In this document: positions 14,839-49,070 of the stretch, one piece after another
Layout of the letters: each line of letters starts with the position of its first letter
How positions within the stretch are numbered: position 1 is the first letter of the stretch
Assembly: GCF_058153355.1 (NCBI RefSeq)
Contig: NZ_CM177019.1
Reading direction: 5' to 3' (one strand)
Length of the DNA: 64,000 nucleotides
Notes under the pieces: model-generated
Told to the model about the DNA's origin: nothing
Databases searched by the model: none
Seen by the model: the letters and a program-made list of their open reading frames with translations, nothing else
Made by a program: the position numbers and the translations under genes

Positions 14839-15309
<471 letters not shown>

Positions 15310-15426: not shown

Positions 15427-15901
15427 ATGAAAAAAAATACTTGAAGCAATACTGGCGATTAATCTCGCCGTACTTTCCTGTATTGTGTTTATAAACATTA
15501 TTTTAAGATATGGTTTTCAGACAAGTATTTTATCTGTAGATGAATTGTCGCGTTATTTATTTGTCTGGTTAACCTTTATTGGCGCGATTGTGGCTTTTAT
15601 GGATAACGCCCACGTTCAGGTTACCTTTCTGGTGGAGAAACTCTCCCCCGCGTGGCAGCGACGAGTCGCTCTGGTTACCCACGCCTTAATATTATTTATT
15701 TGTGGCGCACTGGCCTGGGGCGCAACGCTAAAAACAATTCAGGACTGGAGCGATTATTCACCGATCCTCGGCTTGCCCATCGGCCTGATGTATGCCGCTT
15801 GTCTGCCCACCAGCCTCGTTATCGCATTCTTTGAGCTGCGCCTTTTATATCAACTCATCACGCGTAGCAATTCTCTAACGCCGCCACCGCAAGGAGCTTA
15901 A
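15427..15901 (+). pseudogene. yiaM: TRAP transporter small permease YiaM with +1 frameshift in an A8 homopolymer at codons 2-4
   Basis: ATG at 15427 is followed by 8 A's; the reading frame hits TGA after 4 codons. The conserved frame resumes as the 138-aa ORF from GTG 15485 ([12 protein letters not shown]...); total length matches a 157-aa YiaM if one A is removed. Confidence 0.7.
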
Positions 15902-20339: not shown

Positions 20340-21192
20340 TCATCCGTTAGGGATTTATGAAAAAGCGCTGGCGAAAGATCTCTCCTGGCCGGAGCGGCTG
20401 GTGCTGGCAAAAAGCTGCGGTTTTGATTTTGTCGAAATGTCGGTGGATGAAACCGACGAGCGTCTGTCGCGCCTTGACTGGAGCGCCGCACAAAGGACTT
20501 CGCTGGTTGCCGCGATGATCGAAACGGGTGTTGGGATCCCGTCGATGTGCCTGTCCGCACATCGTCGTTTTCCCTTTGGTAGCCGTGACGACGCGGCACG
20601 CCAGCGAGCACGGGAGATCATGAGTAAAGCAATTCGTCTGGCGCGCGATCTCGGTATTCGCACCATTCAACTGGCGGGCTACGACGTCTATTACGAAGCC
20701 CATGACGAAGGCACGCAGCAACGTTTTGCCGAAGGGCTGGCGTGGGCGGTTGAACAGGCAGCCGCCGCGCAGGTGATGCTGGCGGTGGAGATTATGGATA
20801 CTGCGTTTATGAACTCCATCAGCAAATGGAAAAAATGGGACGAGATACTCGCTTCGCCGTGGTTCACCGTCTACCCGGACGTCGGCAACCTTAGCGCCTG
20901 GGGCAATGATGTTCCCGCTGAACTGAAACTGGGCATTGACCGTATCGCCGCCATCCACCTGAAAGATACCCAGCCAGTGACCGAGCATAGCCCCGGACAG
21001 TTCCGCGACGTGCCGTTTGGCGAAGGCTGCGTCGATTTCGTTGGTATCTTCAAAACGCTGCATGAACTGAACTATCGCGGATCATTTCTGATTGAGATGT
21101 GGACCGAAAAAGCCAAAGAGCCGGTGCTGGAGATTATTCAGGCGCGGCGCTGGATTGAAGCGCGTATGCAGGAGGCCGGATTTATATGTTAG
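20332..21192 (+). CDS. sgbU: L-xylulose-5-phosphate 3-epimerase
   Basis: 286 aa from GTG ([15 protein letters not shown]...), TIM-barrel sugar-phosphate epimerase; the ORF-track start at 20299 is an extension. Confidence 0.85.
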
Positions 21193-21680
21193 AGCGATTG
21201 AAAGCCGACGTGCTGGCGGCGAATCTGGCGCTTTATCGTCGCTATGCAGAAATTGGCGGTATTGTGCATACCCACTCGCGCCACGCCACCATCTGGTCAC
21301 AGGCCGGGCTGGATCTCCCCGCCTGGGGCACCACGCACGCCGATTATTTCTATGGTGCCATCCCCTGCACGCGACAGATGACCGCAGAGGAGATTAACGG
21401 CGAATATGAATATCAGACCGGCGAAGTGATCATTGAAACTTTCGAAGAACGCGGCAGGAGTCCGGCACAAATCCCGGCGGTATTGGTGCATTCTCACGGT
21501 CCGTTCGCCTGGGGCAATAACGCCGCCGATGCGGTGCATAATGCCGTGGTACTCGAAGAGTGCGCCTATATGGGCCTGTTCTCGCGCCAGCTTGCGCCGC
21601 AGCTTCCTGCGATGCAAAACGAACTTCTGGATAAGCATTACCTGCGTAAGCATGGGGCCAATGCCTATTACGGGCAGTAA
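21186..21680 (+). CDS. sgbE: L-ribulose-5-phosphate 4-epimerase with an in-frame internal deletion of ~67 codons (164 aa instead of ~231); probably non-functional
   Basis: N-terminus [16 protein letters not shown] joins directly to [21 protein letters not shown]..., omitting the block present in AraD-family epimerases (AraD: ...[21 protein letters not shown]...PTHRLLYQAF...); C-terminal two-thirds is intact. Confidence 0.75.
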
Positions 21681-24163: not shown

Positions 24164-26134
24164 ATGAACATTTCGGAAGTCGATCTGCATAAACTGACGG
24201 TCAGCGATCCGTTCCTCGGTCAGTACCAACAACTGGTCCGCGACGTGGTGATTCCTTATCAGTGGGATGCCTTGAACGATCGTATCCCAGAAGCGGAACC
24301 CAGCCATGCGATTGAAAACTTTCGCATTGCCGCAGGACTGCAAGACGGTGAATTTTACGGGATGGTGTTTCAGGACAGCGACGTCGCCAAATGGCTGGAA
24401 GCGGTAGCCTGGTCGCTGTGCCAGAAGCCGGATGCCGAACTGGAAAAAACTGCTGACGAGGTAATCGAACTGGTCGCTTCCGCCCAGTGCGAAGATGGCT
24501 ATCTCAATACTTACTTTACGGTAAAAGCGCCCGAAGAACGCTGGAGCAATCTGGCGGAGTGTCATGAACTTTACTGCGCCGGTCATCTGATTGAAGCCGG
24601 AGTCGCCTTCTTCCAGGCCACGGGCAAGCGGCGCTTGCTGGAAGTGGTTTGCCGTCTGGCCGATCATATCGACAGCGTATTTGGTCCAGGTGAAAGTAAG
24701 TTACACGGTTATCCTGGTCATCCGGAAATTGAACTGGCACTGATGCGCCTGTATGAAGTGACCGAAGAGCCGCGCTACCTGGCGCTGACGAACTATTTTG
24801 TCGAACAGCGTGGTGCGCAACCGCACTATTACGACTAGGAATATGAAAAGCGCGGGCAGACCTCGCACTGGCACACCTACGGCCCGGCGTGGATGGTGAA
24901 AGACAAAGCCTACAGCCAGGCACATTTGCCCATCGCACAGCAGCAAACCGCCATTGGTCACGCGGTACGTTTTGTCTACCTGATGACCGGCGTCGCGCAT
25001 CTCGCGCGTTTAAGTCACGATGAAAGCAAGCGTCAGGACTGCCTGCGGCTGTGGAACAATATGGCCCAGCGTCAGTTATATATTACCGGCGGCATTGGCT
25101 CACAAAGCAGCGGCGAAGCGTTCAGCAGCGATTACGATCTGCCGAATGACACGGTATACGCCGAAAGCTGTGCTTCCATCGGCCTGATGATGTTCGCCCG
25201 GCGAATGCTGGAAATGGAAGGCGACAGTCACTATGCCGATGTGATGGAGCGCGCACTGTACAACACCGTGCTCGGCGGCATGGCGCTGGATGGCAAACAT
25301 TTCTTCTATGTGAATCCGCTGGAAGTACATCCAAAATCGCTGAAATTCAACCATATCTACGATCACGTTAAGCCGATCCGCCAGCGTTGGTTTGGTTGCG
25401 CTTGTTGTCCGCCAAATATCGCCCGCGTGCTAACCTCGATTGGTCATTATCTCTACACGCCGCGTGAAGATGCGTTGTATATCAACATCTACGCAGGAAA
25501 CAGCATGGAAGTGCCGGTAGAAAATGGCACGCTGCGTCTGCGGGTTAGCGGAAACTATCCGTGGCAGGAACAGGTGACAATTGCGGTTGAATCGCCCCAG
25601 CCGGTGCGTCATACGCTGGCTTTACGTCTGCCGGACTGGTGCACACAGCCGCAGATTACATTGAATGGGGAAGAGGTCGAGCAGGATATTCGTAAAGGGT
25701 ATTTGCACATTACCCGCGAATGGCAGGAGGGCGACACGCTGAATCTGACTTTGCCAATGCCGGTACGTCGCGTTTACGGTAACCCGCTGGTGCGTCACGT
25801 CGCCGGAAAAGTGGCGATTCAGCGCGGCCCGCTGGTGTATTGCCTGGAACAGGCCGACAACGGCGAGTCACTGCATAACCTGTGGCTGCCCGCCGATGCG
25901 CCATTTACGACATTTGAAGGTAATGGATTGTTCCGCCATAAGATCTTAATCCAGGCACCGGGTTACCGGTATGAACAGAGCAATCCAGAGCAGCAACCGC
26001 TGTGGCATTACGACAGCGCGCCAGCCAAACGCCAGCCGCAAACTCTGACATTTATCCCGTGGTTTAGCTGGGCTAACCGGGGTGAAGGCGAAATGCGGAT
26101 CTGGGTGAATGAGGAAAACCAGTGCCATCCGTAG
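24164..26134 (+). pseudogene. Glycoside hydrolase family 127-like (beta-L-arabinofuranosidase / DUF1680) gene interrupted by one in-frame TAG at 24836-24838
   Basis: The ORFs 24116-24838 and 24893-26134 are in the same frame and separated only by an amber codon (…AQPHYYD*EYEKRGQTSHWHTYGPAWMVKDKA…); combined length ~656 aa is typical of GH127; RBS AAGGAG 7 nt before the ATG at 24164. Confidence 0.65.
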
Positions 26135-26136: not shown

Positions 26137-26215
26137 AGGATAAGGCGCTCGCGCCGCATCCAACCTAGGGTGCACATTGCCTGATGCGACGCTTAACGCG
26201 TCTTATCAAGCCTGA
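26137..26215. repeat. REP-like palindromic sequence
   Basis: ggataaggcgctcgcgccgcatcc and gcctgatgcgacgc motifs. Confidence 0.4.
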
Positions 26216-26263
26216 AGGTCAGTGCGAGAGCGTAGGCCAGCCGCACCGACATCCACCGGTAAA

Positions 26264-27004
26264 TTAAAAACGCCAGCTCACGCCGGTGACAAAGGTAAAA
26301 CTCTCATTACGATCAATCATCGGGCTGTCGGTAATCTCTTCCGGCAGCTCGCTGTATCCGGCACTCGCCATCAATACGATGTGCTCTCCTATCGGGTATT
26401 TTGCCGTCAGGCTGACATAGGGCACCCAGGCATCCTGCGCGGAATAACTTGCCAGACCGCTACGACGGGACTCACTCTCTGAAATGCCATAGTAATAGTC
26501 ACTGAAATTCTCGTCATAATAGAGAACGCCCAGTGCAGGTGTCAGCGACAGGCGACCTATCTGCATTTTGTGAAATACCGATAGCTCCCCCACCCAGCCG
26601 TTGCTGTTATCCAGAACGTCCGCAGCCGCAGAGGCTTTCACGGTTCCCCAACGCTCGTGGTGATACCAGGCAACCCCCGCCATAGCCGTACTATCACGCT
26701 TATCAAGCTGTTGCATGGCATGATCGTCATTATCTGCAGGGTCAAATTCCAGCGGCATCCAGGATGCGGTCAGGCTAAGTTCATTTTTTTCACTTTGCGA
26801 CAGAATAAAACCTAACGTGGTCTGACGAACATAAAAAGAATCACCTTCATAACTAATCAGCGGAATTGCCTTTGTATTTTCATTATAACCACGATAAGGC
26901 GATTCATTATAAGCTGCACCAGCACCAATGGATAATTCAGAAGCAGTAGCGCTTGCCATAAAAGGCAACGTAAATAACGCCACAATATTGCGGTTAATTA
27001 ACAT
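26264..27004 (-). CDS. yiaT: MipA/OmpV-family outer membrane protein
   Basis: 246 aa with signal peptide MLINRNIVALFTLPFMASATA, beta-barrel-like composition, C-terminal aromatic residue (…VSWRF). Confidence 0.85.
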   Translation of the reverse strand: MLINRNIVALFTLPFMASATASELSIGAGAAYNESPYRGYNENTKAIPLISYEGDSFYVRQTTLGFILSQSEKNELSLTASWMPLEFDPADNDDHAMQQLDKRDSTAMAGVAWYHHERWGTVKASAAADVLDNSNGWVGELSVFHKMQIGRLSLTPALGVLYYDENFSDYYYGISESESRRSGLASYSAQDAWVPYVSLTAKYPIGEHIVLMASAGYSELPEEITDSPMIDRNESFTFVTGVSWRF

Positions 27005-27127
27005 GTCCGGTATTCCATTTTAAAATAAGATAAAAAAGAGTCGGCATAATAATGCTTACAATTTCTCCGGTGCAAGATTCATATTTATATAGTAATATAT
27101 AAAATTATATATAATTGGGCTGTTGCG

Positions 27128-28102
27128 ATGACAAAATTACAACTTAAGTACCGGGAGTTAAAAATTATCTCGGTAATCGCTGCCAGTGAAAATATCAGCC
27201 ATGCCGCGACTGTACTTGGATTCGCACAGGCCAACGTCAGCAAATATCTTGCTGATTTTGAATCAAAAGTAGGTTTAAAAGTCTTTGACCGAACCACCCG
27301 GCAGTTGATGCTCACACCTTTTGGTACCGCGCTGTTACCGTACATCAACGACATGCTGGACAGAAACGAGCAACTTAATAATTTTATTGCAGATTATAAG
27401 CATGAGAAACGTGGTCGGGTCACCATCTACGCCCCAACCGGCATAATTACCTATTTATCCAAACATGTTATCGATAAAATTAAAGATATCGGTGATATCA
27501 CCTTATCGCTAAAAACCTGCAATCTTGAGCGTAATGCCTTTTATGAAGGTGTCGAATTTCCCGATGATTGTGATGTTTTAATCAGCTATGCTCCACCAAA
27601 AGATGAATCGCTGGTTGCCAGTTTTATTACGCAATATGCCGTAACCGCTTATGCCAGTCAGCGCTATCTTGAGAAACATCCCATTAGCCGTCCTGACGAA
27701 CTCGAACATCACTCCTGTATTTTGATCGACTCGATGATGATCGACGACGCGAATATCTGGCGCTTCAACGTCGCCGGGAGTAAAGAGGTGCGGGATTATC
27801 GCGTGAAGGGAAATTACGTTTGCGACAACACGCAATCGGCGCTGGAGCTGGCACGAAATCACCTGGGGATTGTGTTTGCGCCAGACAAAAGTGTGCAGAG
27901 CGACCTGCAAGACGGCACGCTGGTGCCCTGCTTTCAGCAACCGTATGAATGGTGGCTGGATCTGGTGGCTATCTTCCGTAAACGGGAATACCAGCCCTGG
28001 CGGGTCCAGTATGTGCTGGATGAAATGCTGCGTGAAATTCGCCACCAGCTTGCTCAGTCGCAGCAACTGCGGCCTGAACAAGCGGCGGAAAGCGAAGATT
28101 AA
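27128..28102 (+). CDS. yiaU: LysR-family transcriptional regulator
   Basis: 324 aa; N-terminal LysR HTH ([46 protein letters not shown]). Confidence 0.9.
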
Positions 28103-29235
28103 TGATCGAGATAAAGGTAATGCACCCAACTGGTCATGCGTAACAGCACTTTGCGCATCACCGAGACATGGCTGAAATGATCAGAGTAAACCGCCACCTG
28201 GGCGTAAATACCGTCTGGTAAAGCGCTCAACTCAGTGTGCTCATCCAGTTCAATGGTCGCGATAACGCCATCTGAACCCGGTGCTGTGTTTAACGTCTGT
28301 AAGGTGCCGGTCGACTGATAAGCTCCGCCGGGAACAGCTGGGCTAATGGCTGCCAGCTTACCGCTGAATACCTTACCTGGCAGAGCATTAAACACCACTT
28401 CCGCATCATCGCCGGGAGCCAGTCGCAGCAAGGAGTTCTGACGGAACTGCGCCACAATTTGTCGTTTCTGATCGGGTATAAACACCATCACAGGACGTAG
28501 CGGCAGCGATGCGGCATAGGTACCCGGACGAATCAGCACTTGCGTCACATAACCATCGCTCGGCGCACGCACTATCGTCTGCTCAAGGTTATATTTTGCT
28601 TCCGCGAGCTGCGCTTTCAGGCTGGCGATTTGAGAATGTTCACCCAACACCAGGCTATCCAGCTGGCTCTGGATCTGTTTTTGTTCCGCCGCCGATGACT
28701 TTACGGAGGCTTCCTGCGCCAGATAATTTTGCCGCGCCACATCAATATCGCGTTCTGAAAACGGGTTTACTTTCGCCTGGCTGCCGCGTGCGTAACGCTG
28801 GTACTCTTTAGCGAATTTATCCCGCGTGGCCTTTGCCTGCTGAGTATTCGCCGCCATCTCATCTAACTCTGCGCCCAACGCCCGCTGTTTATGTTCTGCG
28901 GTAACGATATCCGCCATCAGCCGATCCACCCGCGCCTGATAACGCGTCGGGTCCAGTCGAAATAGCACCTCACCTTTTTTAATCAGCGTATTTTTCTTGT
29001 CCGTCACTTCGATCACCACGCCTGTCACCTGCGGGACAACAGGAATAGAAATAACTGCTTTTTGCGCTTTAAAGGTATACGGATGGTTATAGTTCATTAA
29101 CAGAATTAGACCGCTGACAATAAATATGCCACCCAGGGCCGCGGTGGGAATGGTCCATTTATTTACAGGAATTTTGAAGATCTTAAACATTGCCCATGCG
29201 AAAGCCACATAGGTCAAAATAATCAGTAAATCCAT
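28099..29235 (-). CDS. yiaV: HlyD-family membrane fusion (periplasmic adaptor) protein
   Basis: 378 aa; N-terminal TM anchor, coiled-coil, beta-barrel domain. Confidence 0.9.
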
Positions 29236-29240
29236 AAGTA

Positions 29241-29564
29241 TTACTCGGCAGAAGAGGATTTGATGTCGGCGAGCTGTTTCTCCAGCCCGGCAATACGCTG
29301 TTGTAGTTGCACAACGGAGGAGTCATGGTTTTGCATTCCCCATCCCCGCTCCGGGCGATAAAGCGTGGCCCAAATCCACAAAAATGGCCAGATAACATGC
29401 AGCGTAAAAAGACTCACCCAACCAGCAACATGAATGGCGTCGGCATGAGGATGATTACGTTTTTTAGCAATCAGGTAGGGAATATCATGTAAAATAATAA
29501 TCCCATAGAATATCACCAGAAATACAAAAATAAGCACTCCCAGTGCAAAATAGTCCAGGAACAT
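29241..29564 (-). CDS. yiaW: DUF3302 small inner-membrane protein
   Basis: 107 aa from [30 protein letters not shown]; immediately upstream of yiaV on the same strand. Confidence 0.85.
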
Positions 29565-29725
29565 ATTTCCCTCAGAGAATATAAAAAAGAACAATTAACG
29601 CATATTATGAAATGCCATGATGCAGTGCAATTTCCTTATTTATATAACGACATATTGTTTTTTATATACTTTCCGAAGTGTGCTACCTGGCTTTTCAACA
29701 GGTCGAGGTTTATCATATTGAAATA

Positions 29726-30061
29726 ATGGAACTATTGACCAAACTAATGAATAACCCCAGTAAAACATCCACAGTACAGATAAAGCGTATTAAACCTTCA
29801 ATTATCTACCGTTTATTGCTGATTGGCCTCGGAACACCAATGGTGATTTACGGTCTGGTTTGCGGCGTTTTAGGCATATTTGGCTACGATCAGGTGAGAT
29901 GGAACGACACCGTGATCCACGGCCTGCTGGCCCTGCCTGCGGGATTGCTTGCAGGCCTGTCAGTCAGTGTGTTCCTCACCGTGGTGATTGGCACCATCGC
30001 TTGTTTTGGTCTGTGGCTGTACAGCCTGGTCCGCCCGCTCACCATCGAAACGCGAGATTAA
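29726..30061 (+). CDS. Hypothetical small membrane protein (start uncertain; 29678 is an alternative)
   Basis: ORF with hydrophobic helices (LLLIGLGTPMVIYGLVCGVLGIFGY; LLALPAGLLAGLSVSVFLTVVIGTIACFGLWLY); convergent with hicB; no family recognised. Confidence 0.4.
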   Translation: MELLTKLMNNPSKTSTVQIKRIKPSIIYRLLLIGLGTPMVIYGLVCGVLGIFGYDQVRWNDTVIHGLLALPAGLLAGLSVSVFLTVVIGTIACFGLWLYSLVRPLTIETRD

Positions 30062-30468
30062 ACGCCCGGCAATACACGCCGGGCGGCTTCCGCCAGAAAC
30101 GCACTTCTGTTGGCGTAGTCTGGGTTATTGCGCACGTAGGTATCAATCTTGTTCAGTAATCTTTTCGGCATCGTAATATTGATACGTTCAGCCCGACCTT
30201 CGAACTGATTCATATTGATATCCACCAGCAACCATTGCCCGCCAATAAAGTCCTGCGCACGCTGGACCAGATGTGTTTCCACAGAGCCTGGAAGCGGCAA
30301 CTCTTCATTCATCTCGCATAAGGTTTCGAAGTGCGCGACCAGTGCACTTCGCGCATCCTGGAAAGCGTTGTCCAGCGTATCACCAGCAAAATAACAGCCT
30401 GGAACATCAGGGAAAAAACCGCTGGCGCTGCCGTCAGGATCACTGTGGATATAGGCGGGATAAAACAT
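30058..30468 (-). CDS. hicB: HicB-family antitoxin (RNase H-like fold N-domain + C-terminal RHH DNA-binding motif)
   Basis: 136 aa; …NITMPKRLLNKIDTYVRNNPDYANRSAFLAEAARRVL is a ribbon-helix-helix tail typical of HicB; located 16 bp downstream of the hicA-like ORF. Confidence 0.75.
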   Translation of the reverse strand: MFYPAYIHSDPDGSASGFFPDVPGCYFAGDTLDNAFQDARSALVAHFETLCEMNEELPLPGSVETHLVQRAQDFIGGQWLLVDINMNQFEGRAERINITMPKRLLNKIDTYVRNNPDYANRSAFLAEAARRVLPGV

Positions 30469-30484
30469 ATTGCCTCCTGAAATT

Positions 30485-30670
30485 TTAAAATGTTAAACCA
30501 GCCTGACGCCCAATTTGCGCCAGCGTACCGGGCTTAATATCTTTTTTAGGGTGCGGAACCGTCACCAGACCCGGATGAACAGGGTGGCGGAACTGATGAT
30601 GACTACCACGGGTTCGAATATGTTCCCAGCCATGCTGCTTCAGGATGGCGATCACGTCTGCACTTTTCAC
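30485..30670 (-). CDS. hicA: HicA-family mRNA interferase toxin
   Basis: 61 aa: …TRGSHHQFRHPVHPGLVTVPHPKKDIKPGTLAQIGRQAGLTF matches the HicA signature (GSHH…P…K-D-I/L…G-T-L…I…Q-A-G-L). Confidence 0.75.
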   Translation of the reverse strand: MKSADVIAILKQHGWEHIRTRGSHHQFRHPVHPGLVTVPHPKKDIKPGTLAQIGRQAGLTF

Positions 30671-30947
30671 ATCCCTGCCCTTCCATGATTATACACACGA
30701 TACACACACATTTAGCAATAACAATCACGATAGCGCGATTTATATGGGCCGTCAGGGGGATAAAGTTGACTCAGGAATGCCGTTCGGAAGAAGAATAACG
30801 GTGTGCAGTAACTTGTTGAAAAGATGTGAGGAGACTCGTAATTAAGTTCAATCAATATTCAGTCATTCAAGACGTAGACATTTGAATTGGTAAAACGCGA
30901 AAGCGTCGCATCAGGCAATGAATACCCGATGCGACCAGCTTCTTACA

Positions 30948-32485
30948 TCAGAACAGCCCCAACGGTTTATCTGAGTAGCTCACCAGCAGGCACTTGGTTT
31001 GCTGATAATGCTCAAGCATCATCTTATGGGTTTCGCGCCCAATACCCGACTGCTTATAGCCACCAAACGCCGCATGTGTCGGGTAAGCGTGATAACAGTT
31101 GGTCCACACTCGCCCGGCCTGAATGCCGCGCCCCATCTTATAGGCCAGATTACCGTTGCGGCTCCAGACACCAGCCCCCAGACCATATTGCGTGTCGTTC
31201 GCCAGCTCCAGCGCTTCTTCCATCGTTTTGAAGGTGGTTACCGCCAGCACCGGACCAAAAATTTCTTCCTGGAACACGCGCATATTATTCTGACCAAACA
31301 GAATCGTCGGTTCGAGGTAGTAGCCGTCTTTCAGTTCGCCTTCCAGCAGCTTGCGCCGCCCACCGGTGAGCACGTCTGCGCCCTCTTTTTTACCGATATC
31401 AATGTAGTTGAGGATGGTTTCCAGTTGCCCGTGCGAAACTTGCGCCCCCATTTGCGTCACGCTATCGAGCGGGTTACCGCTGCGAATGCTTTCGACACGG
31501 CGGATGGCGCGTTCCATAAAGCGTTCGTAGATAGACTCCTGCACTAAAGCACGGCTTGGACAGGTGCAAACTTCGCCCTGGTTAAAGGCAAACAGTGCAA
31601 AGCCTTCCAGCGCTTTATCGAAAAAGGCATCTTCTTCATCCATCACATCAGCAAAGAAGATATTGGCGACTTGCCGCCCAGCTCCAGGGTTACCGGAATA
31701 ATATTTTGCGTGGCGTACTGCATAATTTGTTGGCCCACTTCCGTTGAGCCGGTAAACGCCACTTTAGCGATGCGTTTCGAGGTCGCCAGATATTCGCCAA
31801 TTTCCCCACCAGCACCGTTGACCACGTTCACCACGCCCGGCGGCAGTAAATCACCGACGATTTCCATTAGCAGCAGTACAGAAAGCGGGGTAAGACGTGC
31901 GGGTTTCAGCACCACACAGTTGCCCGCCGCCAGCGCGGGAGCCATTTTCCAGCTCGCCATCAGCAGCGGGAAGTTCCACGGAATAATCTGCCCCACCACG
32001 CCTAACGGTTCGTGGAAGTGATAAGCCACAGTTTCGCTATCAACTTCACTGATCCCACCTTCCTGCGCCCGAATACACGAGGCGAAATAGCGGAAGTGGT
32101 CAATCGCCAGCGGTACATCAGCAGCACTGGTTTCGCGAATGGGTTTGCCGTTATCCCAGGTTTCAGCCGTCGCTAAAAGTTCGAGGTTTTGCTCCATTCG
32201 ATCGGCAATCTTAAACAGAATCGCCGCGCGATCCTGCACCGAAGTATGCGCCCATTTATCTTTCACTTTATGCGCAGCATCCAGCGCCAGATCGATATCT
32301 CGTTTACCCGAAGACGCCACTTCGCACAGTAGCTGCCCGGTCACCGGCGTCAGGTTCTGGTAATACTCGCCGTCGGCGGGCGCGACCCATTCGCCGCCAA
32401 TAAAGTTGTCATAGCGGGCTTTTAACTTGAGGGGGAAGCCATACTCGCCGGGCTTAATCTGTGCTGAAGGGGGATTGTTGGTCAT
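30948..32485 (-). pseudogene. aldB: Aldehyde dehydrogenase B with a 1-bp deletion (frameshift) near codon ~279
   Basis: N-fragment ([20 protein letters not shown]… to …LELGGKSP) and C-fragment (…[16 protein letters not shown]… to …DKPLGLF) are both ALDH sequence in different frames; junction reads ggcaagtcgccaatatcttc, where a further A (ccaaatatc) would restore …[16 protein letters not shown]…. Confidence 0.8.
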
Positions 32486-32685
32486 GATCGTCTCCTTGCG
32501 GTGTGAGGTATAACAAGGGTAGACGTGACTGGCGAAATCTTCGCCAGCTGGTGATAGCTTTACGACGGCTATCACGAATTTACGGGCAAGGATTACAGAG
32601 ATAACTAAAACTCTCTCAAAAATCGCAAATTTTGAGAGAGTTGAAAAAATGGCTGACAATTAGCCAGCCATTGTGGGAATGATGA

Positions 32686-33837
32686 TTACATCGCCGCGCG
32701 ATAAATCGCCACAATTTCTTCGTGAGTTGCCTGAATCGGGTTAGTAAAGCCGCAGGCATCTTTCAGGGCATTGGTCGCCAGTACCGCGAAATCTTCTTCT
32801 TTCACGTTCAGGTCACGCAAGCCTGCCGGGATATTCACTTTCTTCGCCAGTTCACGGATGGCATTGATGCAGGCTTCTGCACCTTCCGCGTCGTTTTTAC
32901 CTGTCACGTTAACACCCATCGCGGCAGCGCAGTCACGCAAACGTGCAGCAGCGACTTTACTGTTGAATACCTGAACGTGCGGCAGCAGAACGGCGTTACA
33001 TACACCGTGCGGCAGATTGTAGAAACCACCTAACTGGTGCGCCATCGCATGAACATAACCCAGAGACGCATTGTTGAACGCCATACCCGCGAGGAACTGA
33101 GCGTAAGCCATTGCTTCGCGCGCTTTCTCATTGCTGCCATCTTCAACGGCTAAGGGCAGGTTTTCGGCAATCATAGTCACCGCTTTCAGTGCGCAAGCGT
33201 CGGTGATCGGCGTGGCGGCAATAGACACATACGCCTCGATAGCGTGCGTTAAGGCATCCATACCCGTTGCAGCGGTCAGTGACTTCGGCATACCGATCAT
33301 CAGAGAGGAGTCATTGACAGAAAGCAGCGGAGTCACGTGCTTATCCACAATCGCCATTTTGATGTGACGTGCTTCGTCGGTGATGATGCAGAAACGGGTC
33401 ATTTCTGATGCCGTACCCGCCGTGGTGTTGATGGCGATCATCGGCAACTGCGGTTTTGCAGAGCGGTCAACGCCTTCATAATCGCGGATGTCACCGCCGT
33501 TGGCTGCAACCAGCGCAATACCTTTTGCGCAGTCGTGTGGAGAACCACCGCCTAAGGAAATCACGCTATCGCAATTATTTTCTTTAAGTAATTTCAAACC
33601 TGCAGCGACGTTTTCCGTGGTGGGGTTAGGTTGGGTGCCATCATAAATAACGCTAAAAATATTGCGTTCTTCCAGTGCTTTTTGCACATCACCCGCCATA
33701 CCCAATTTCGTTAACATATTGTCAGTGACAATTAAGGTACGGGTAAATCCATAATCTGCCATCATATTCATTGCATCATTCAATGAATCAGCGCCGATAA
33801 CATTCACGGAAGGAATAAAAAAGGTTGAAGCTGCCAT
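32686..33837 (-). CDS. yiaY: Iron-containing (group III) alcohol dehydrogenase
   Basis: 383 aa; Fe-ADH signatures ([11 protein letters not shown], metal-binding His motifs). Confidence 0.9.
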
Positions 33838-34026
33838 AATACACTCCTGAAAGAGTAAAAAAGGGCCGGCAGCTTACTGAGGATTTTCATTTGAAAATAT
33901 GATCAACATTACCGTTTATTAAAATATTTTTAATAAAAAGCACGTTACATTCATCAAATAACGTGCTTCCTTAACATTAATAAGAACTTTGTATTAATTC
34001 ATATTTATTATGAATTAATCGCTCCC

Positions 34027-35871
34027 TTATTTTTCGGGAAATAATAATGCGTCGCGCAATAAATGATCATTTCCACGGCGACGCGTAAAGCCAATGCGGT
34101 CAAAATATTCCAGGATTTGAATTGCCAGCTTTCGGCCTACGCCTAAGCGATCGCGGAAATCCGCCGCGCAGGTTGAACCACATTCCTGATCGAGATCGCG
34201 GATCATATTGGCAAACTCGACAATCCGATCGTTACGGTAATAACGATCTTTAACGATCGCGGTAATTATCCCCTGTTGGGCCGCCTGGCGTAGCGTCAAA
34301 CGCATTGCCTGCTCGTCGGTTCCCGTCTCTTTTGCCAGGTCACGCACCCACCACGGCTCGTCACCAAACAGCGGCTCCGCTTTTTGCCAGATGGCCTGCT
34401 GCTCTTCGCTGAATCCCGCTTTATGATCCGGCAGATGCAGCCAACCGTGATGACTGAGGATGTCGCCGCTTTCGCGCATCTTTTCAATCAGCAACAGCAC
34501 CAGCGCTTCATCTTCCATTGGCAACGCCATGCGCCGCAGACGCTCGCGCCCAGGACCTGGTTCATCGCGATGTTGCTCATGATAAGTCGCTAATGTGTCG
34601 AGAATTTTCCGCTGCCAGCGAGCGGCAACCGGCGCATTCAACAAGCTATAACCAGCCTGAATATAGCCAGGCTGTTGCAGCAGTTCGCGCATCCCTTCGC
34701 CGTTGAGCTGGCGCGCCCAGGCGAAATCAGCAAGGTTAACCGCTCCGCGTTCCAGATGAATAGCTAACGCATCGGCATCGCTCTGCGCCTGTGCAAGAGA
34801 CGCCAGCCATTGCAGATATTCCGGCTTACGTTTACCGCGACGCGGCGGGTTAAGCATCACCACGCGCGCCCCCGCCAGCGTGTTGCGGGCCGAGATATCG
34901 CGTAGCACTAAGCGATCGTTATCTGCCAGCCACAGCGGCGTGTCGAACACCAACTCGGCAAGGTTATCTTCCAGCAGCGAAACGCGTCCCGTAACGTGGC
35001 TGGCGGCGTGGTGAATATGCAGCGGCTGCCACTGGGTCAACGGTGTATGAGTTTGAAGCTCGACTATCACCCGCGTAAACGGCTCCGGCGGCGCATCGGC
35101 AAGCAACCAGTCCCCACGGTTAATCTGTTCTTTTTCCGCATCACCCGCGATATTAAGCGCAATACGCTGCCCGGCATGAGCTGCATTTGTTGGCTGATTT
35201 TGCGCATGCAGCGCACGCACGCGCATCGGTTTATTTACACCAGTCAGCCAGAGTGAATCGCCTACCTTCACTTCCCCACTTAACGCCGTACCGGTGACGA
35301 CCAGCCCGGCACCTTTTACGGTAAAAGCACGGTCGATAGCGAGGCGGAAGCTATGTTGGCTGGCGTGTTCACGTTCTGGTAACTGAAGCAGATGCTCGCG
35401 CAGGGCATCAATTCCCCGGCCTTCGGTTGCTGCGGTGATAAACAGTTTTGCCTCAGCAAAACCGTATTCCCGCAGCACCTCCTTTACCTGGCGTTCAACC
35501 TCATCAACACGCGCTTCGTCCACGCGATCGGCTTTGGTCAGCGCCACTGTCAGCATCGGGTTACCGGTCAGCTGCAAAATCGCCAGATGCTCACGAGTCT
35601 GTGCCATCACGCCGTCATCGCACGCCACCACCAACAGCGCGTGATCGATACCCCCGACGCCCGCCAGCATGTTGGAAAGAAACTTTTCATGGCCGGGAAC
35701 GTCGATAAAACCCGGAACACGACCATCCGGCTGCGGCCAGTAGGCATAGCCGAGATCGATGGTCATGCCGCGCTTTTTTTCTTCCGGCAGACGGTCGGCA
35801 TTTACGCCAGTAATCGCCTGCAATAAGGTTGTTTTGCCGTGGTCAACGTGTCCGGCAGTCGCAATAATCAT
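34027..35871 (-). CDS. selB: Selenocysteine-specific translation elongation factor
   Basis: 614 aa; N-terminal GTPase ([22 protein letters not shown]…) plus C-terminal winged-helix extension; overlaps selA. Confidence 0.95.
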
Positions 35872-37259
35872 TTCAACAACATCTCCAAAAACCGTTGCTC
35901 ATCTTCAAGGCAGCGTAAATCCAGCCACAATCGTCCGTCATAAATACGACCAATCACCGGCACTGGCAATTCACGCCAGCGGGCGGCTAATGACTCAAGG
36001 TGGCTACCGCGTCCATCATGGGGTGTAAACGTTAATGCCGCGCTCGGCAGGCGATCAACCGGCAGCGAACCACTGCCAATCTGCGAAAGACATGGCATAA
36101 CCTGTACCGCGAACTCCGCGCCGTAATGTGCGGCAAGGGGGGCCTGTAAACGTTGTGCCTGGATTTGAATGACCTCTGCGCTGCGGGTAAGCAGACGCAG
36201 GGTCGGTAATTTTTCACTCAGCGCCTCAGGGTGTAAATAAAGACGCAACGTGGCTTCCAGCGCCGCGAGGGTCATTTTATCCGCGCGTAATGCACGCTTC
36301 AGTGGATGGCTTTGCAGGCGGGCGATCATCTCTTTTTTACCAACAATAATTCCTGCCTGCGGCCCGCCTAACAGCTTGTCGCCGGAGAAGCTCACCAGAC
36401 TGACGCCCGCCGCAATCAACTCCTGCGGCATTGGCTCTTTCGGCAAACCGTACTGGCTAAGATCAACCAGCGAGCCACTGCCTAAATCAGTTACTACGGG
36501 AACATCCAGCTCTTTGCCGAGCGCCACCAGTTCCGCTTCATCTATCGCTTTGGTGAATCCCTGAATGCTGTAGTTACTGGTATGTACTTTCATCAACAGC
36601 GCGGTATTTTCATTCACCGCCTGGCGATAATCATTAGCGTGCGTGCGATTGGTGGTCCCCACTTCGTGTAGGGTGCAGCCTGCCTGACGCATGACATCAG
36701 GAATACGAAACGCACCGCCAATCTCCACCAGTTCGCCGCGAGAAACCACAACCTCTTTCCCGCTGGCAGTGGCCGCCAACATCAACAAGACCGCCGCCGC
36801 ATTGTTATTAACGATACAGGCATCTTCCGCCCCCGTAATACGGCACAGCAGCTGCGCCAGCGCCCGATCGCGATGTCCGCGTCCGGCGTCATCCAGATCG
36901 TATTCGAGGGTTACTGGCGAACGCATAGCCTGCGCAACGGCTTCCACCGCGGCTTCCGCCTGTAAAGCTCGCCCAAGGTTGGTATGCAGCACGGTTCCCG
37001 TCAGGTTGATCACCGGACGCAGCGCGCTTTGCGCCTCTTTCGTCAACCGGGCATCAACTTCTTGCGCCCAGTTTTCACACCACGCGGGTAGCGTCTGGCT
37101 GTCACGAATCACTTCTCGCGCTTCGTCAAGCATCTGACGCAGCAACTCCACCACGCGGGTGTGACCATAGGTATCACGCAAAGAAAGGAAAGAGCTATCG
37201 CGCAATAAGCGATCAATAGCCGGAAGTTGACTATAGAGGGAACGCGTTTCGGTTGTCAT
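35868..37259 (-). CDS. selA: L-seryl-tRNA(Sec) selenium transferase
   Basis: 463 aa; PLP-dependent SelA fold (…[15 protein letters not shown]…). Confidence 0.95.
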
Positions 37260-37356
37260 AGGAAACCTGGCTGATCAAGGCCCTCTCACACGGAGAAGGG
37301 CGTTTAACATAACCACGGATTGTAACGTGAGATGGGTCAGGAGGACATATCGCGCA

Positions 37357-37965
37357 TCAAGCCTTTGGCGGTTCGGTGCGGGCAAAACTTTCGCGGCTAA
37401 ACAGGTTTTCGACCAGTTTGACTAAGTGTGGGCGGTCGACACACCAGCCTGGCGCAACGCGGCGGAAATTGAGATATCCGACGGCACAGGCAATGGCGAT
37501 AGTCGCCAGATTGACCGTATCGGTTTTGAGCGTGCCATCGACCAGATATCCTTCCAGCACATCCAGACTGCGGTTGATTTTCTCCCGCTGGCGTAATAAT
37601 TCATCTTCAGACTGCTGCGGCGCCGGACGTGCCTGTTCACGCACCGACACCAGCCCGGCATCCATAATGCCATCCGCCAGCGCCTCAATTTTGCGCACCC
37701 GCAACGACTCCAGCGGATCGCGCGGCAACATCGCCGGAGCGACATTCATTAATTCAATATATTCAGCGATGATCGGCGAATCAAACCAACATTCGCCCTC
37801 TTCGGTCACCAGCACCGGCACTTTCCCTAACGGGTTAAATTGCGCCACGCCGTTGTCTGCGTTATAGGGCAGTTCATTAATAAATTCGAAAGTTATGCCC
37901 TTTTCTAACAACAGAATAGAAAGTTTGCGTACAAACGGGCTGGTGTAGCTACCGACGAGTTTCAT
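37357..37965 (-). CDS. yibF: Glutathione S-transferase-like protein
   Basis: 202 aa, GST N-terminal thioredoxin-like region and C-terminal domain. Confidence 0.85.
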
Positions 37966-38180
37966 GCCGAGTCCTTTGTGCGAGGAAAAATATCAGTATG
38001 GCCTGGTGATGGGAAAAAGGGCAGAAAATGTTGATGGTTTGTTACTTCCCAATAAATCACATATTTATCATGGTGATATAAATATTTTCCTAATTGTTCT
38101 TATCTGACAGATATCTCACTTAAGGCTTTCTTATAAATCTGTAGGGTTTGCACCATGAGTGCGGTAGCTATGAGGTTTAT

Positions 38181-40493
38181 ATGTCCTCAGAAGGATTACG
38201 TTTCACGCTGTCGGTGGCCGGTATCGTGGAGATGGCGACGGCGGTGGTGAGCTTCCGTCTGTACCAGCACCACTGCACGCCGTTCATCCTGGATGTGGAT
38301 ATCGCCAGCGGGCTGCCCGACCTGACGGCGGAGGATTTTCTGGAGAAGAGCGCGGTGCTGACGGTCTGGCAGGGTGATATCCCGCAGCGTTACGTCAGCG
38401 GTATCGTGACGGAGGTGCAGCTCGGTGAGAACAACGACTGGCAGATGCGTTATTCCCTGAGCATCAGCCCGCCGCTGTGGCGGGCAGGGTTACGGCAGAA
38501 CTTCCGTATCTTCCAGCAGCAGGACATTCAGACGATATCAGCACAGCTTCTGAGAGAGAACGGGGTGACGGCGTGGATGCCGCTGTTCTATGAGGCGCAC
38601 CCGGCGCGGGAGTTCTGCGTGCAGTACGGGGAGAGCGACCTGGCATTCCTGACCCGGCTGTGGGCGGAGGAAGGTATCTTCTTTTATGAGCGCTGCGGTC
38701 AGGAAGGGCCGGAGCAGAAGCTGGCGGTGTGTGATGACGTGGCGGGGCTGACGGGAATGGGGGCGCTGGCGTTTAACCCGAATACCACGACCGGGGGAAC
38801 GACGGAGTACATCAGTGAGTTTCGTTACCGTGCGCAGATAAGCGTGGCGTCGGTGGAGACGCAGGATTATACGTTCAAAACGCCGGGGTGGCCGGGGTAC
38901 TACAGCCATGACGGGGAGAGCCTGAACGGGCAGGGAACGCAGTACGAGATATTTGATTATCCGGGGCGTTTCAAGGATGAGCAGCATGGCCAGGATTTTG
39001 CGCGTTACCAGACGGAAGGGTGGCGGAACGGGGCGGAGACGGCGAGCGGGGTGTGTAACACGGCGCGGCTGTGGCCGGGAACGCGGTTCCGGCTGACGGG
39101 CCATCCCTCAGAGACGCTGAACCGGGAATGGCAGGTTGTGGGAAGCACACTGCGGGGAGAACAGCCGCAGGCGCTGCACGGGAGTCACGGTGAAGGGACG
39201 ACACTGAGCAATCAGTTTGAGGTGATACCGGCAGACAGGACGTGGCGTCACGCGCCGCTGCCGAAGCCGAAGGTGGACGGCCCGCAGAGTGCCATCGTGA
39301 CCGGGCCGAAGGGTGAGGAGATATTCTGCGACGAGCATGGCCGGGTACGGGTGAAGTTTCACTGGGACCGTTATCACGGGATGACGGAGGAGAGTTCGTG
39401 CTGGATACGGGTGTCGCAGGCATGGGCGGGACCGGGGTTCGGCAATCTGGCGATACCGCGTGTGGGTCAGGAAGTGATAGTGGACTTTCTGAACGGCGAC
39501 CCGGACCAGCCCATTGTGACGGGGCGGACCTACCATGAAGATAACCGTTCACCGGGGGATTTACCGGGCACGCGGACGCAGATGACCATCCGCTCGAAGA
39601 CCTATAAAGGAAGCGGCTTTAATGAACTGCGTTTCGAGGATGCGACGGACAGTGAGCAGGTGTATATCCACGCGCAGAAGAACATGGACACGGAGGTGCT
39701 TAACGACCGGACGACGGACGTGAAGCATGACCATACGGAGACCATCGGTAACGACCAGAAGATAAGGGTGGTGAAGGGGCAGACGGTTGAGGTCGGCACC
39801 AGAAAAGAAGGGGGTCACGACCAGAGTATCACGGTGGCGAACGACCGGCGCATAACGGTACGTAATGACCAGACGCTGAAGGTGACGAATGACCGGACGG
39901 TGAGCGTGAGTCACGATGACGGCCTGTATGTCAGAAACGACCGTAAAGTGACGGTGGAAGGGAAGCAGGAGCATAAGACGACGGGGAACCATATCAGCCT
40001 GGTGGAGGGAAAGCACAGTCTGGAGGTGAAGGGCGACCTGGCGGAGAAGGTGAGTGGCGCGCTGGGGATCAAGGTGGACGGGGATATCGTGCTGGAGAGC
40101 AGCAGCCGGATAAGCCTGAAAGTGGGCGGCTCGTTCGTGGTGATACACTCTGGCGGTGTGGATATTGCGGGGCCGAAGATAAACCTCAACGGGGGAGGCA
40201 GTCCGGGGACGCCAGTACAGACGTTACAACCGGTGGTACTGGAGGCGCTGGAGGATGAGAATGATGATGAGAACCCTGAAAAATATACTCTCCAGTTCCA
40301 TTTTACAGACGATGACGGGATACCGTATTCAGAGACACGCTACATTGCCTTCTTTGAGGACGGCACGCAGACGCGAGGGGAGACGGATGAAAATGGGTAT
40401 ACGGAAACATTCTCCACTGACAGCGAGCAGACAATCGAAGTCAGATTGTTGCATTTGAATATCGATATGATATGGGGAGGGATTAATGAATAG
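38181..40493 (+). CDS. vgrG: Type VI secretion spike protein VgrG (copy 1) with ~80-aa C-terminal extension (possible transthyretin-like adaptor domain)
   Basis: 770 aa from MSSEGLRFTLSVAGIVE…; gp27-like N-domain, gp5-like OB/beta-helix region with repeated VxVxV-type strands (…ITVANDRRITVRNDQTLKVTNDRTVSVSHDD…), then …VVIHSGGVDIAGPKINLNGGGSPG and an extension …YTLQFHFTDDDGIPYSETRYIAFFEDGTQTRGETDENGYTETF…. No YD repeats, so not Rhs. Confidence 0.9.
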   Translation: MSSEGLRFTLSVAGIVEMATAVVSFRLYQHHCTPFILDVDIASGLPDLTAEDFLEKSAVLTVWQGDIPQRYVSGIVTEVQLGENNDWQMRYSLSISPPLWRAGLRQNFRIFQQQDIQTISAQLLRENGVTAWMPLFYEAHPAREFCVQYGESDLAFLTRLWAEEGIFFYERCGQEGPEQKLAVCDDVAGLTGMGALAFNPNTTTGGTTEYISEFRYRAQISVASVETQDYTFKTPGWPGYYSHDGESLNGQGTQYEIFDYPGRFKDEQHGQDFARYQTEGWRNGAETASGVCNTARLWPGTRFRLTGHPSETLNREWQVVGSTLRGEQPQALHGSHGEGTTLSNQFEVIPADRTWRHAPLPKPKVDGPQSAIVTGPKGEEIFCDEHGRVRVKFHWDRYHGMTEESSCWIRVSQAWAGPGFGNLAIPRVGQEVIVDFLNGDPDQPIVTGRTYHEDNRSPGDLPGTRTQMTIRSKTYKGSGFNELRFEDATDSEQVYIHAQKNMDTEVLNDRTTDVKHDHTETIGNDQKIRVVKGQTVEVGTRKEGGHDQSITVANDRRITVRNDQTLKVTNDRTVSVSHDDGLYVRNDRKVTVEGKQEHKTTGNHISLVEGKHSLEVKGDLAEKVSGALGIKVDGDIVLESSSRISLKVGGSFVVIHSGGVDIAGPKINLNGGGSPGTPVQTLQPVVLEALEDENDDENPEKYTLQFHFTDDDGIPYSETRYIAFFEDGTQTRGETDENGYTETFSTDSEQTIEVRLLHLNIDMIWGGINE
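39163..40040. repeat. Near-identical ~0.9-kb vgrG 3'-core repeat, copy 1 of 3
   Basis: Sequence and six-frame antisense ORFs are identical to 43497-44374 and 49075-49900 (e.g. ORF 39602-39799 = 43935-44132 = 49459-49656). Confidence 0.85.
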
Positions 40494-40576: not shown

Positions 40577-41422
40577 ATGGGAGATGGAAAGGGTAGTACG
40601 AGCGGAAAAAGCCAGAGCGGTGAACAGTGTGTAGTTTTAAAGGAGGGAAAAATTACTAATGATTTTAAAATAATGATGAGAGAGGCTCTGAAGGCGCTGA
40701 TGGCTGTATTGAAGAAAAGAGTAGAAGATCTTGGTGATAAATGGGGAGAGGAACAAAATCAGGAGTTTATAAATATATTTGGTATTGATGGAAATACTTA
40801 TATTAAATTAGAGTTCCCTTTCGGGGGGCGTAAGGTTATGTTTCCAGAGAATATAAAGGCAAGGGATTATATGAGAAATGGCGTTACTCGCCTGTATGAG
40901 ATATGTGGGGAATTATCTGTGGAAGGTGATTGTGTAGACGTTACTATTCATGACCATTTCCTCAAACGTGATGCCAATTGTAATCTTGTTCTTAATGACA
41001 AAGGGGGTAATGAATATGTTGACAAAGACGTAATCAGGCCCAAAACCGGTAACTTTGTGAATTGTACAGATAATGACGCTTATGCTGCCAATGTAACTTA
41101 CGATCAGATTTTGGGTGTAAAACCTGGAGGCTTTAAAAGTTTGGTAAGTATAACTATAGGACAAAGATTTATAGATAGGCCACCCACTGGGAAAAACTCT
41201 AAGGCATCGACACTCTGCCATGAACTATCTCACTTTATAAGGTACGGGGATTCATTTAAGTTTGGAGGCATGTGGACGGAAGATATGCCGGTAGATATAG
41301 AGTATAATACAGGTGACGAATATATTGTTCATGCCACTAAATTAAAAAATGATAAAAAATCAGAACTATTTCAGAATGCATATAATATCGAACGTTATTT
41401 CGAGATTCATGTACCATATTGA
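40577..41422 (+). CDS. Putative T6SS effector, HExxH zincin-like metallopeptidase candidate
   Basis: 281 aa from ATG 40577 (RBS aaggagg upstream); AT-rich; HELSH motif at 41219-41233 followed by …GGMWTEDMPVDIEYNTGDEY…; no signal peptide; directly downstream of vgrG-1. Confidence 0.55.
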   Translation: MGDGKGSTSGKSQSGEQCVVLKEGKITNDFKIMMREALKALMAVLKKRVEDLGDKWGEEQNQEFINIFGIDGNTYIKLEFPFGGRKVMFPENIKARDYMRNGVTRLYEICGELSVEGDCVDVTIHDHFLKRDANCNLVLNDKGGNEYVDKDVIRPKTGNFVNCTDNDAYAANVTYDQILGVKPGGFKSLVSITIGQRFIDRPPTGKNSKASTLCHELSHFIRYGDSFKFGGMWTEDMPVDIEYNTGDEYIVHATKLKNDKKSELFQNAYNIERYFEIHVPY

Positions 41423-41446
41423 TGCTTTTATTTGACGGGGGAGTAT

Positions 41447-42355
41447 ATGCTTGCTAGATGGATTGTTTTTATTGTTTTTTTTGCGCATCCAATATTTGCT
41501 TATGATATCTCTGGCGATTATGCTGTTCATTACAGATATGGGAAGTTATATTGGAATGGAGTAATGGACAAACTTGGTGTCTATCCTCGTGTAGAGCCGA
41601 CAAGGCTTAATTATTATGATTATTATGATGATCTTTCAGCCTATGCTGTTTTTCAATATTATACTATCAGTAAAAATGAGAGTCAGTATAATCAAGATAA
41701 AAATAAAATATATCTTCATCTTTCCGTGCATCAGAAAGAAAATATTGTAGCAGCTGCAGTGGTTTTATCGAATAAAAGCCAGGGATCTTATTTTGTTCAT
41801 CGACTAACTCTTCCTCTTGACGTTAACGGCGGGCCTTACTCTTCCTTGTGTAGTGGTGTGTTTATACCGATAATGGATAACATTCAGTTGGATTTTTTAA
41901 AAAAAACAAAATGTAGCTTTGGTGAATGGAAAAATAAATCCGTTTGGCACGAGATATTAACAGGGAAAGAGCTATCCTTTGATGTCATATTGAACGATTA
42001 TTATGCCTTTTTACCGGGCATTCATCGTTATAATATAGGAACGGTAGAATTTACAATAGTTAATCAAGAGTGGTTTACAGAACAATGTATATATGAGTAT
42101 TTTCTTTCTATTATGAACTGGCGGGCAGAAAGTGAGTGTACTAATCCTATAGATAAAATAAGATATGGTATAGAGGAGTGGCGGGTTTGGAGAATTTGTG
42201 GACCTTATCGTGGGTCAGGTCTATTTCAGGATTTTTTAGCACGCTTTGGCTATCATGGCGGTAATGATAATATATTCAAAATAAGATCAAATCAGGTTGT
42301 GGTTACTATTGATGGGGATAGGGCATCTCCTCCTTATTCGTTGAGGAATTATTAA
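41447..42355 (+). CDS. Putative cognate immunity protein (secreted/periplasmic) for the HExxH effector
   Basis: ~303 aa with N-terminal signal peptide MLARWIVFIVFFAHPIFA; AT-rich; starts 24 bp after the effector stop; no recognisable family. Confidence 0.45.
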   Translation: MLARWIVFIVFFAHPIFAYDISGDYAVHYRYGKLYWNGVMDKLGVYPRVEPTRLNYYDYYDDLSAYAVFQYYTISKNESQYNQDKNKIYLHLSVHQKENIVAAAVVLSNKSQGSYFVHRLTLPLDVNGGPYSSLCSGVFIPIMDNIQLDFLKKTKCSFGEWKNKSVWHEILTGKELSFDVILNDYYAFLPGIHRYNIGTVEFTIVNQEWFTEQCIYEYFLSIMNWRAESECTNPIDKIRYGIEEWRVWRICGPYRGSGLFQDFLARFGYHGGNDNIFKIRSNQVVVTIDGDRASPPYSLRNY

Positions 42356-47775: not shown

Positions 47776-49070
47776 ACAGGCAGGCAGGGAAAGATCACGT
47801 AACGCTGCTTTTTTGTACTATACAATTCGCATTTTATGTTTGAAAATTGAGATATTCCTCATTACCTGAAGCTGTTTTTTATTGCTTATACATGATCAAA
47901 TACTCCTTACATAATTAAGGAGAACAAAATGGTACTTAAAAAATTGATGGAACATATTTCTATTATCCCCGATTACAGACAAGCCTGGAAAGTGGAACAT
48001 AAATTATCGGATATTCTACTGTTGACTATTTGCGCCGTTATTTCGGGTGCAGAAGGCTGGGAAGATATAGAGGATTTTGGGGAAACACATCTCGATTTTT
48101 TGAAGCAATATGGTGATTTTGAAAATGGTATTCCTGTTCACGATACCATTGTCAGAGTTGTATCCTGTATCAGTCCTGCAAAATTTCACGAGTGCTTTAT
48201 TAACTGGATGCGTGACTGCCATTCTTCAGATGATAAAGGCGTCATTGCAATTGATGGAAAAACGCTCCGGCACTCTTATGACAAGAGTCGCCGCAGGGGA
48301 GCGATTCATGTCATTAGTGCGTTCTCAACAATGCACAGTCTGGTCATCGGACAGATCAAGACGGATGAGAAATCCAATGAGATTACAGCTATCCCAGAAC
48401 TTCTTAACATGCTGGATATTAAAGGAAAAATCATCACAACTGATGCGATGGGTTGCCAGAAAGATATTGCAGAGAAGATACAAAAACAGGGAGGTGATTA
48501 TTTATTCGCGGTAAAAGGAAACCAGGGGCGGCTAAATAAAGCCTTTGAGGAAAAATTTCCGCTGAAAGAATTAAATAATCCAGATCATGACAGTTAAGCG
48601 ATTAGTGAAAAGAGTCACGGCAGAGAAAAAATCCGTCTTCATATTGTTTGCGATGTCCCTGATGAACTTATTGATTTCACGTTTGAATGGAAAGGTCTGA
48701 AGAAATTATGCGTGGCAGTCTCCTTTCGGTTAATAATAGCAGAACAAAAGAAAGAGCCAGAAATGACGGTCAGATATTATATCAGTTCTGCTGATTTAAC
48801 CGCAGAGAAGTTCGCCACAGCAATCCGAAACCACTGGCACGTGGAGAATAAGCTGCACTGGCGTCTGGACGTGGTAATGAATGAAGACGACTGCAAAATA
48901 AGAAGAGGAAACGCCGCAGAATTATTTTCAGGGATACGGCACATCGCTATTAATATTTTAACGAATGATAAGGTATTCAAGGCAGGGTTAAGACGTAAGA
49001 TGCGAAAAGCAGCCATGGACAGAAACTATCTCGCGTCAGTCCTTGCGGGGAGCGGGCTTTCGTAATCTTG
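47776..49070 (+). mobile_element. ISAs1-family (H-repeat / ISEc1-like) element inserted into vgrG copy 3
   Basis: ~1.3 kb; contains the H-repeat transposase gene; left-end sequence (gtacaggcagggaaagatcac…) recurs at 51856 and ~53976; right end abuts vgrG sequence beginning mid-gene (…FEVIPADRTW…). Confidence 0.7.
47929..49065 (+). pseudogene. ISAs1-family transposase (H-repeat protein, YhhI-like) with an in-frame TAA at 48595-48597
   Basis: ORFs 47929-48597 and 48712-49065 are in the same frame and both match the H-repeat protein ([58 protein letters not shown]… and …[41 protein letters not shown]…); full span would encode 378 aa. Confidence 0.8.

Follow-up and report, generated by a model that had tools for sequence, protein, structure and literature searches.

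AldB and the decay of dispensable genes in E. coli

The aldehyde dehydrogenase AldB of Escherichia coli is described in a bioRxiv preprint (10.1101/2021.07.26.453911, citing Xu & Johnson 1995 and Ho & Weiner 2005) as an RpoS-dependent stationary-phase enzyme that has been proposed to detoxify aldehydes and whose physiological role is called unclear. The loss of AldB should be tolerated. The gene analyzed here lies in a stretch of DNA of 64,000 nucleotides (contig NZ_CM177019.1 of the assembly GCF_058153355.1), which we refer to as the window. It resembles the E. coli gene for AldB (b3588) in its yiaY-aldB-hicAB-yiaW neighbourhood and also in its product, which, after the repair of a single base, is only one or two amino acids off. 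Unlike b3588, however, the window gene is split at codon 275, and Ala470 is replaced by Thr.

The closest parallels to such a gene are the lineage-specific frameshift pseudogenes of E. coli and Shigella, which likewise combine a single-base indel, a premature stop, clonal inheritance, and intact orthologues in the relatives. Public data also contain truncated AldB products from E. coli, Shigella and Salmonella, and, among close E. coli genomes, yiaO carries an internal stop in MFDS1022581 and yiaY a frameshift in 24A16CRGN010. As in the gene decay of E. coli and Shigella, other inactivated genes lie nearby (yiaM, sgbE, GH127 and T6SS effectors). The local load of four broken genes among 33 conserved ones is nevertheless high compared with the usual E. 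coli, and, unlike in Shigella, there is no IS expansion in the window. The pseudogene load led us to consider a Shigella-like origin, which found no support in the IS content, which amounts to one intact IS621 and ISAs1 remnants in 64 kb. A similar picture can also be produced by the homopolymer sequencing errors of long-read or flow-based platforms, in which a 1-bp change in a run likewise breaks a conserved gene.

For reasons given below, we hold with high confidence that the aldB lesion is a genuine, recent loss-of-function mutation that has reached fixation in a small clone of E. coli; the loss was probably neutral, or nearly so. It is an ordinary case of a dispensable gene turned into a pseudogene by a frameshift in a single clone, known in kind, and it brings no new mechanism or system.

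The single-base deletion in aldB

The window gene occupies the same chromosomal position as the annotated aldB, with yiaY on one side and hicAB/yiaW on the other, as judged against five annotated loci. The first-pass annotation had placed the two halves of aldB in different frames and had pointed to the loss of one base from an AAA run, a reading that is borne out both by the open reading frames (ORFs) and by a MAFFT alignment of window positions 30900–32550 with three aldB genes that are intact and annotated in complete E. coli genomes. The alignment has one internal gap, at which an A is lost and CCAAAT becomes CCAAT. On the minus strand, window positions 31675–31640 read ggcaagtcgccaatatcttctttgctgatgtgatgg, which agrees letter for letter with the junction that had been quoted. 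A BLAST comparison of the whole window with the two closest references maps the missing A to 31663–31665; the deletion site itself, at 31663–31664 on the minus strand, holds AA instead of the AAA of intact aldB, so that CCA AAT is turned into CCA AT. The frame here runs GGC AAG TCG CCA ATA TCT, compared with CCA AAT ATC in the intact E. coli genes. It is lost at codon 275, and a premature TGA follows six codons on, at 31645–31643.

What is left of the gene are two ORFs on the minus strand. The N-terminal fragment (31643–32485) has 280 amino acids, begins with MTNNPP, and matches positions 2–265 of the 503 positions of the NF050026.1 profile. It is made up of 274 native codons, from Met1 to Pro274 with LELGGKSP at their end, and of six out-of-frame codons (31663 to 31646) that read ISSLLM. 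The C-terminal fragment (30948–31643) has 231 amino acids (MDEEDAFF...PLGLF) and matches profile positions 273–503. Its start codon ATG (31643–31641) overlaps the upstream TGA (31645–31643) as TGATG, in the context CTG ATG TGA TGG. With its single indel and its premature stop, the gene has the form of a heritable frameshift pseudogene. On our reading, the AAA of codons 274–275 (CCA AAT) lost one A, probably by replication slippage or a simple deletion, and the loss has since been fixed in the clone. Immediately downstream of aldB lies the toxin–antitoxin pair hicA/hicB (30058–30670), which is intact in the clone.

Consequences for the protein

One added A does restore the conserved reading, as had been proposed: the repaired gene encodes an uninterrupted protein of 512 amino acids, which scores 915.5 bits against the NCBIfam equivalog model for the acetaldehyde dehydrogenase AldB/ExaC (NF050026.1; ALDH superfamily; cutoff 900) and aligns end to end with the solved ALDH structures 9fm9 (E = 1e-249) and 9koi. 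The fragments as they are actually encoded stay below the cutoff of the same model, with 461.6 bits for the 280-residue and 418.7 bits for the 231-residue product. Judged from its sequence, the locus is aldB by descent and would encode no member of the AldB/ExaC family.

The catalytic residues are not found in one polypeptide: Glu268 (in the motif ELGGKSP) lies in the N-terminal fragment and Cys307 (QGEVCTC) in the C-terminal one. From the established knowledge of ALDHs, we take Glu268 to be the general base and Cys307 to be the nucleophile. Between the two, seven native residues, NIFFADV (profile positions 266–272), are lost. The 280-residue product would retain the NAD(P)-binding part and Glu268, parted from Cys307 and the remaining catalytic domain, and the C-terminal ORF would carry Cys307 with the rest of the catalytic and the oligomerisation regions. 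Since the positions of the motifs put the general base and the nucleophile on separate polypeptides, active AldB is presumably not made. What is established here is the deletion, the fact that different isolates have inherited it, and where the break falls with respect to the conserved motifs.

The remainder of the gene is well conserved. Compared with seven intact orthologues, it differs at 20–48 synonymous codons and by only one or two amino acids, and such a combination of few amino-acid changes with many synonymous ones indicates strong purifying selection until recently, and hence a young inactivation of aldB. The only lineage-specific amino-acid change in AldB is A470T, a Thr for Ala in the motif YPAHAAFGG, which lies downstream of the frameshift at 31077–31079 on the minus strand (coordinates from the codon count). 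A further difference, D423E, is seen in comparison with two references. Residue 470 is Ala in all seven intact E. coli references, in 12 further orthologues of 91–99.6% identity, and also in 9fm9. The replacement suggests relaxed selection on a gene that was already dead, though it is a single event.

The same allele in other datasets

Exact copies of the 280- and the 231-residue products were each found on two contigs in the Logan collection, which consists of assemblies of public sequencing runs made directly from the reads; the repaired 512-residue AldB sequence has no exact match in a collection of 15 billion proteins. Window positions 26179–38203, the deletion included, are matched at 100% identity, free of mismatches and gaps, by one Logan contig, SRR31441161_232 (12,025 bp), which was seen in two runs. 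The second of these runs is most probably SRR8656992, because SRR31441161 and SRR8656992 are the only Logan runs that carry the YibH allele specific to the clone. The exact SelB allele of the window led to two NCBI assemblies, GCA_043012465.1 and GCA_015332025.1. Each of them has AAGTCGCCAATATCTTCTT, and each is without a called AldB product. Altogether, the CCAAT allele was seen in three such records (L007, L029 and L031), and the datasets can be told apart by SNPs.

The exact YibH allele of the window was found in four datasets only (GCA_043012465.1, GCA_015332025.1, SRR31441161 and SRR8656992), and these define a small clone. SRR31441161 is identical to the window, with no SNP, and could be the window's own read set. 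The other three are distinguishable: SRR8656992 differs from the window at positions 12485, 14805, 15683 and 58597, GCA_043012465.1 at 12485 and 15683, and GCA_015332025.1 at 29232, 32712 and 58597. Going by these SNPs, at least three to four genotypes appear to have the aldB lesion in common. A pairwise comparison of the window with nine contigs of the clone, covering about 107 kb, found zero indels. The contigs of the other datasets break off at the repeats of vgrG and IS, and the window reads through them; the agreement is likely to span different types of assembly and probably also different sequencing technologies. In the 5' part of vgrG-1 (38316–38530), clustered mismatches separate the window from the two NCBI assemblies of the clone. 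They are probably due to a collapse of repeats among the vgrG copies in the fragmented assemblies and not to real divergence.

Error, split enzyme or recoding

In the first-pass annotation, the lesion in aldB had been put together with those in yiaM and vgrG-3 as a possible systematic assembly error, in which homopolymer miscalling in a long-read assembly would have removed the A from a genome whose aldB is in truth intact. Long reads are prone to homopolymer errors, and long reads were probably used here, given that the window runs unbroken through the vgrG and IS repeats where other assemblies end; three 1-bp frameshifts inside 64 kb would also be in keeping with such errors. Several findings speak against an error and make it very improbable in our judgment. 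All three lesions recur in the datasets of SNP-distinct relatives. The aldB allele is the same in four other datasets, three of them separated from the window by SNPs, the contigs of these datasets break at repeats in the way typical of accurate short-read assemblies, and over the roughly 107 kb that were compared there is no disagreement in indels. The directions of the lesions are mixed, with +1 in an A7 run (yiaM), -1 in an A3 run (aldB) and -1 in a G2 run (vgrG-3); two of the three affected runs are very short, and an A3 run is an unlikely place for a homopolymer error. A systematic homopolymer error on a platform would strike runs of four to seven bases heavily. In an audit of the aligned core sequence of the window against two references, the length differed in one of about 1,295 runs of three bases (aldB), in none of about 327 runs of four and none of about 105 runs of five bases, in one of about 27 runs of six bases (intergenic), and in one of the six to eight runs of seven bases (yiaM). 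This gives three of about 1,760 runs of three or more bases and none of about 430 runs of four or five, and there is no excess of indels linked to run length. Beyond the reach of any homopolymer error model are also the 201-bp deletion in sgbE, the nonsense codon in the GH127 gene, and A470T. Unlike the sequencing errors it resembles, the change in aldB affects a run of only three bases, is reproduced in separate datasets, and is not accompanied by an excess at longer runs. The frameshift is to be annotated as a true pseudogene, not "corrected", and the accuracy of the assembly in the window is supported and not cast into doubt.

A genuine deletion could still leave a functional gene if a ribosome restarted at TGATG and the separately made halves associated into an active two-piece AldB. 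The overlap of stop and start could permit some re-initiation, and both halves are otherwise nearly native. Yet no Shine-Dalgarno-like sequence precedes the C-terminal ATG, and between the catalytic Glu and Cys such an enzyme would lack NIFFADV and carry an aberrant tail of six residues. The presence of A470T at an invariant residue, which suggests relaxed selection, also counts against it, and we know of no naturally split ALDH of such a kind; we give a two-piece enzyme hardly any credence. It is harder still to believe that a full-length AldB is produced by programmed ribosomal frameshifting, transcriptional slippage or a phase-variable run, for which the location of the lesion within a short A run is the one point in favor. 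Recoding would need a -1 shift, and inspection of the sequence from the deletion to the stop, CCA ATA TCT TCT TTG CTG ATG TGA, found no slippery heptamer of the form X XXY YYZ. Slippage-based switching would need a run far longer than A2 or A3, and the states are uniform, with A2 throughout the clone and A3 in every complete E. coli genome that matches across the junction (5,178 in all). Programmed frameshifting and phase variation were rejected on these features of the sequence. The reading that we retain is that of a heritable loss of function.

Distribution outside the clone

An 81-nt probe placed across the junction matched 5,178 complete E. coli genomes, and the A is missing in none of them; in the best of these matches, 81 of 82 columns agree, and only the gap differs. 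Likewise, an exact 39-mer across the deletion gave no match in 100,044 species-representative genomes and revealed no independent recurrence there. Relatives that have the same SelB allele, at about 1% divergence, keep an intact AldB of 512 amino acids; in four of them (L026–L028 and L030) the intactness rests on the called 512-residue products. Because the nearest relatives with an intact aldB are already about 1% divergent, the event is not closely datable. Among the nearest relatives of the clone with intact genes are SRR33953902, SRR29324740 and GCA_025795305.1. Of 5,426 complete E. coli genomes, even the best match is only about 96–99% identical to the window, which implies that the lineage is poorly sampled. 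Within these collections, the aldB allele appears to be private to a handful of isolates. Searches of the literature for aldB frameshift pseudogenes, and for the run and assembly accessions of the clone, returned nothing relevant.

The relatives with the same SelB allele show some variation of their own around aldB. In two of them, a gene for a 431-residue Fic-domain protein lies between yiaY and aldB (11316–12611 in L027, 9482–10777 in L030). In L027, the GH127 gene follows directly after aldB, and hicAB through yiaT are missing. The window itself has a short, highly divergent patch in yiaL (15003–15022) with mutually compensating indels whose net effect is zero. This YiaL allele is rare, being present on 8 contigs in the public collection, and it was used as a lineage marker.

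Other lesions in the xyl-yia-aldB region

The gene order in the window is xylFGHR-bax-malS-avtA-yiaJ...sgbE-GH127-yiaT...hicAB-aldB-yiaY-selBA-yibF, beyond which come a vgrG/T6SS effector island and mtlADR. From xylF to yibF, 29 of the 33 conserved genes are intact. The other four (yiaM, sgbE, GH127 and aldB) are broken by four different kinds of mutation, and two of them belong to the yiaK-S operon. At the start of yiaM (15430–15437, plus strand), which encodes the small permease of a TRAP transporter, the window has ATG-A8 in place of the ATG-A7 of relatives, a +1 frameshift at codon 4; the A8 run aligns free of gaps in three datasets of the clone. In the araD-like gene sgbE, 201 bp are lost in frame between the 11-bp direct repeats ATCTGGCGCTT; the junction lies at 21223–21233 on the plus strand, and SgbE is shortened from 231 to 164 amino acids (ORF 21186–21680). 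The gene for the GH127 glycoside hydrolase (24164–26134, plus strand) has a TAG at 24836–24838 in place of CAG (Q225*), by which the protein of 656 amino acids is broken into ORFs of 224 and 413. Downstream of this stop there are seven amino-acid differences from the reference. The sgbE deletion and the GH127 stop are common to the Logan and the NCBI relatives of the clone.

The aldB lesion looks like one of several independent inactivations, in what has the appearance of a local decay among catabolic and stress genes that are dispensable. One could go further and see the clone in an early phase of reductive evolution, with the four broken genes and the decayed T6SS effectors as its traces and aldB as one symptom. 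We regard this as unlikely, though a split ALDH made by way of TGATG is a less likely reading still. If the clone were indeed in early reductive evolution, this could mark a recent restriction of its niche or a relaxed selection on carbohydrate and aldehyde metabolism. Taken as an ordinary pseudogene in a small clone, the aldB lesion has more modest implications. The strain and its sister isolates are most likely without AldB, which is non-essential, and also without an intact yiaK-S pathway and the GH127 glycosidase, and the clone offers a modest example of clone-specific metabolic erosion, in which four differently caused inactivations are clustered.

The vgrG/T6SS effector island and mobile elements

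The third vgrG of the effector island, vgrG-3, survives as a remnant together with an S-type pyocin part (49043–51492, plus strand). Its 5' end is cut off by ISAs1, whose split transposase (47929–48597 and 48712–49065) truncates the gene, and at 49977 a GG is reduced to G, the junction being CTGAAGTGGG here and CTGAAGGTGGG in relatives. The identical single-G junction is present in GCA_015332025.1. An S-type pyocin/DNase domain is joined to vgrG-3, and an immunity gene (51506–51778) comes next; other E. coli have intact VgrG-pyocin versions of 1151 amino acids at their kdp locus. An exact look-up of the products of the vgrG-3 fragment, in two ATG-start variants, returned no copy.

The gene that follows vgrG-1 (40577–42352), an M35 effector gene, has one internal stop and is divided into two ORFs of about 300 amino acids each; it matches a 594-residue M35 metalloendopeptidase of strain N96 and is also in two pieces in MFDS1022581. 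Between avtA and ysaA, at 11000–11980, lies the transposase of IS621, a member of the IS110 family, which is inserted at the same site in MFDS1022581; the closest reference, 2020CK-00188, is without IS621 at the avtA-ysaA site. Further into the island, at 52224–53465, a single ORF of 413 amino acids joins an EF-hand and an N-acetylmuramidase part, which appear as two overlapping genes in the annotation of MFDS1022581. At 52704 the window has one A more than that strain, and here it may be the reference MFDS1022581 that is the frameshifted one.
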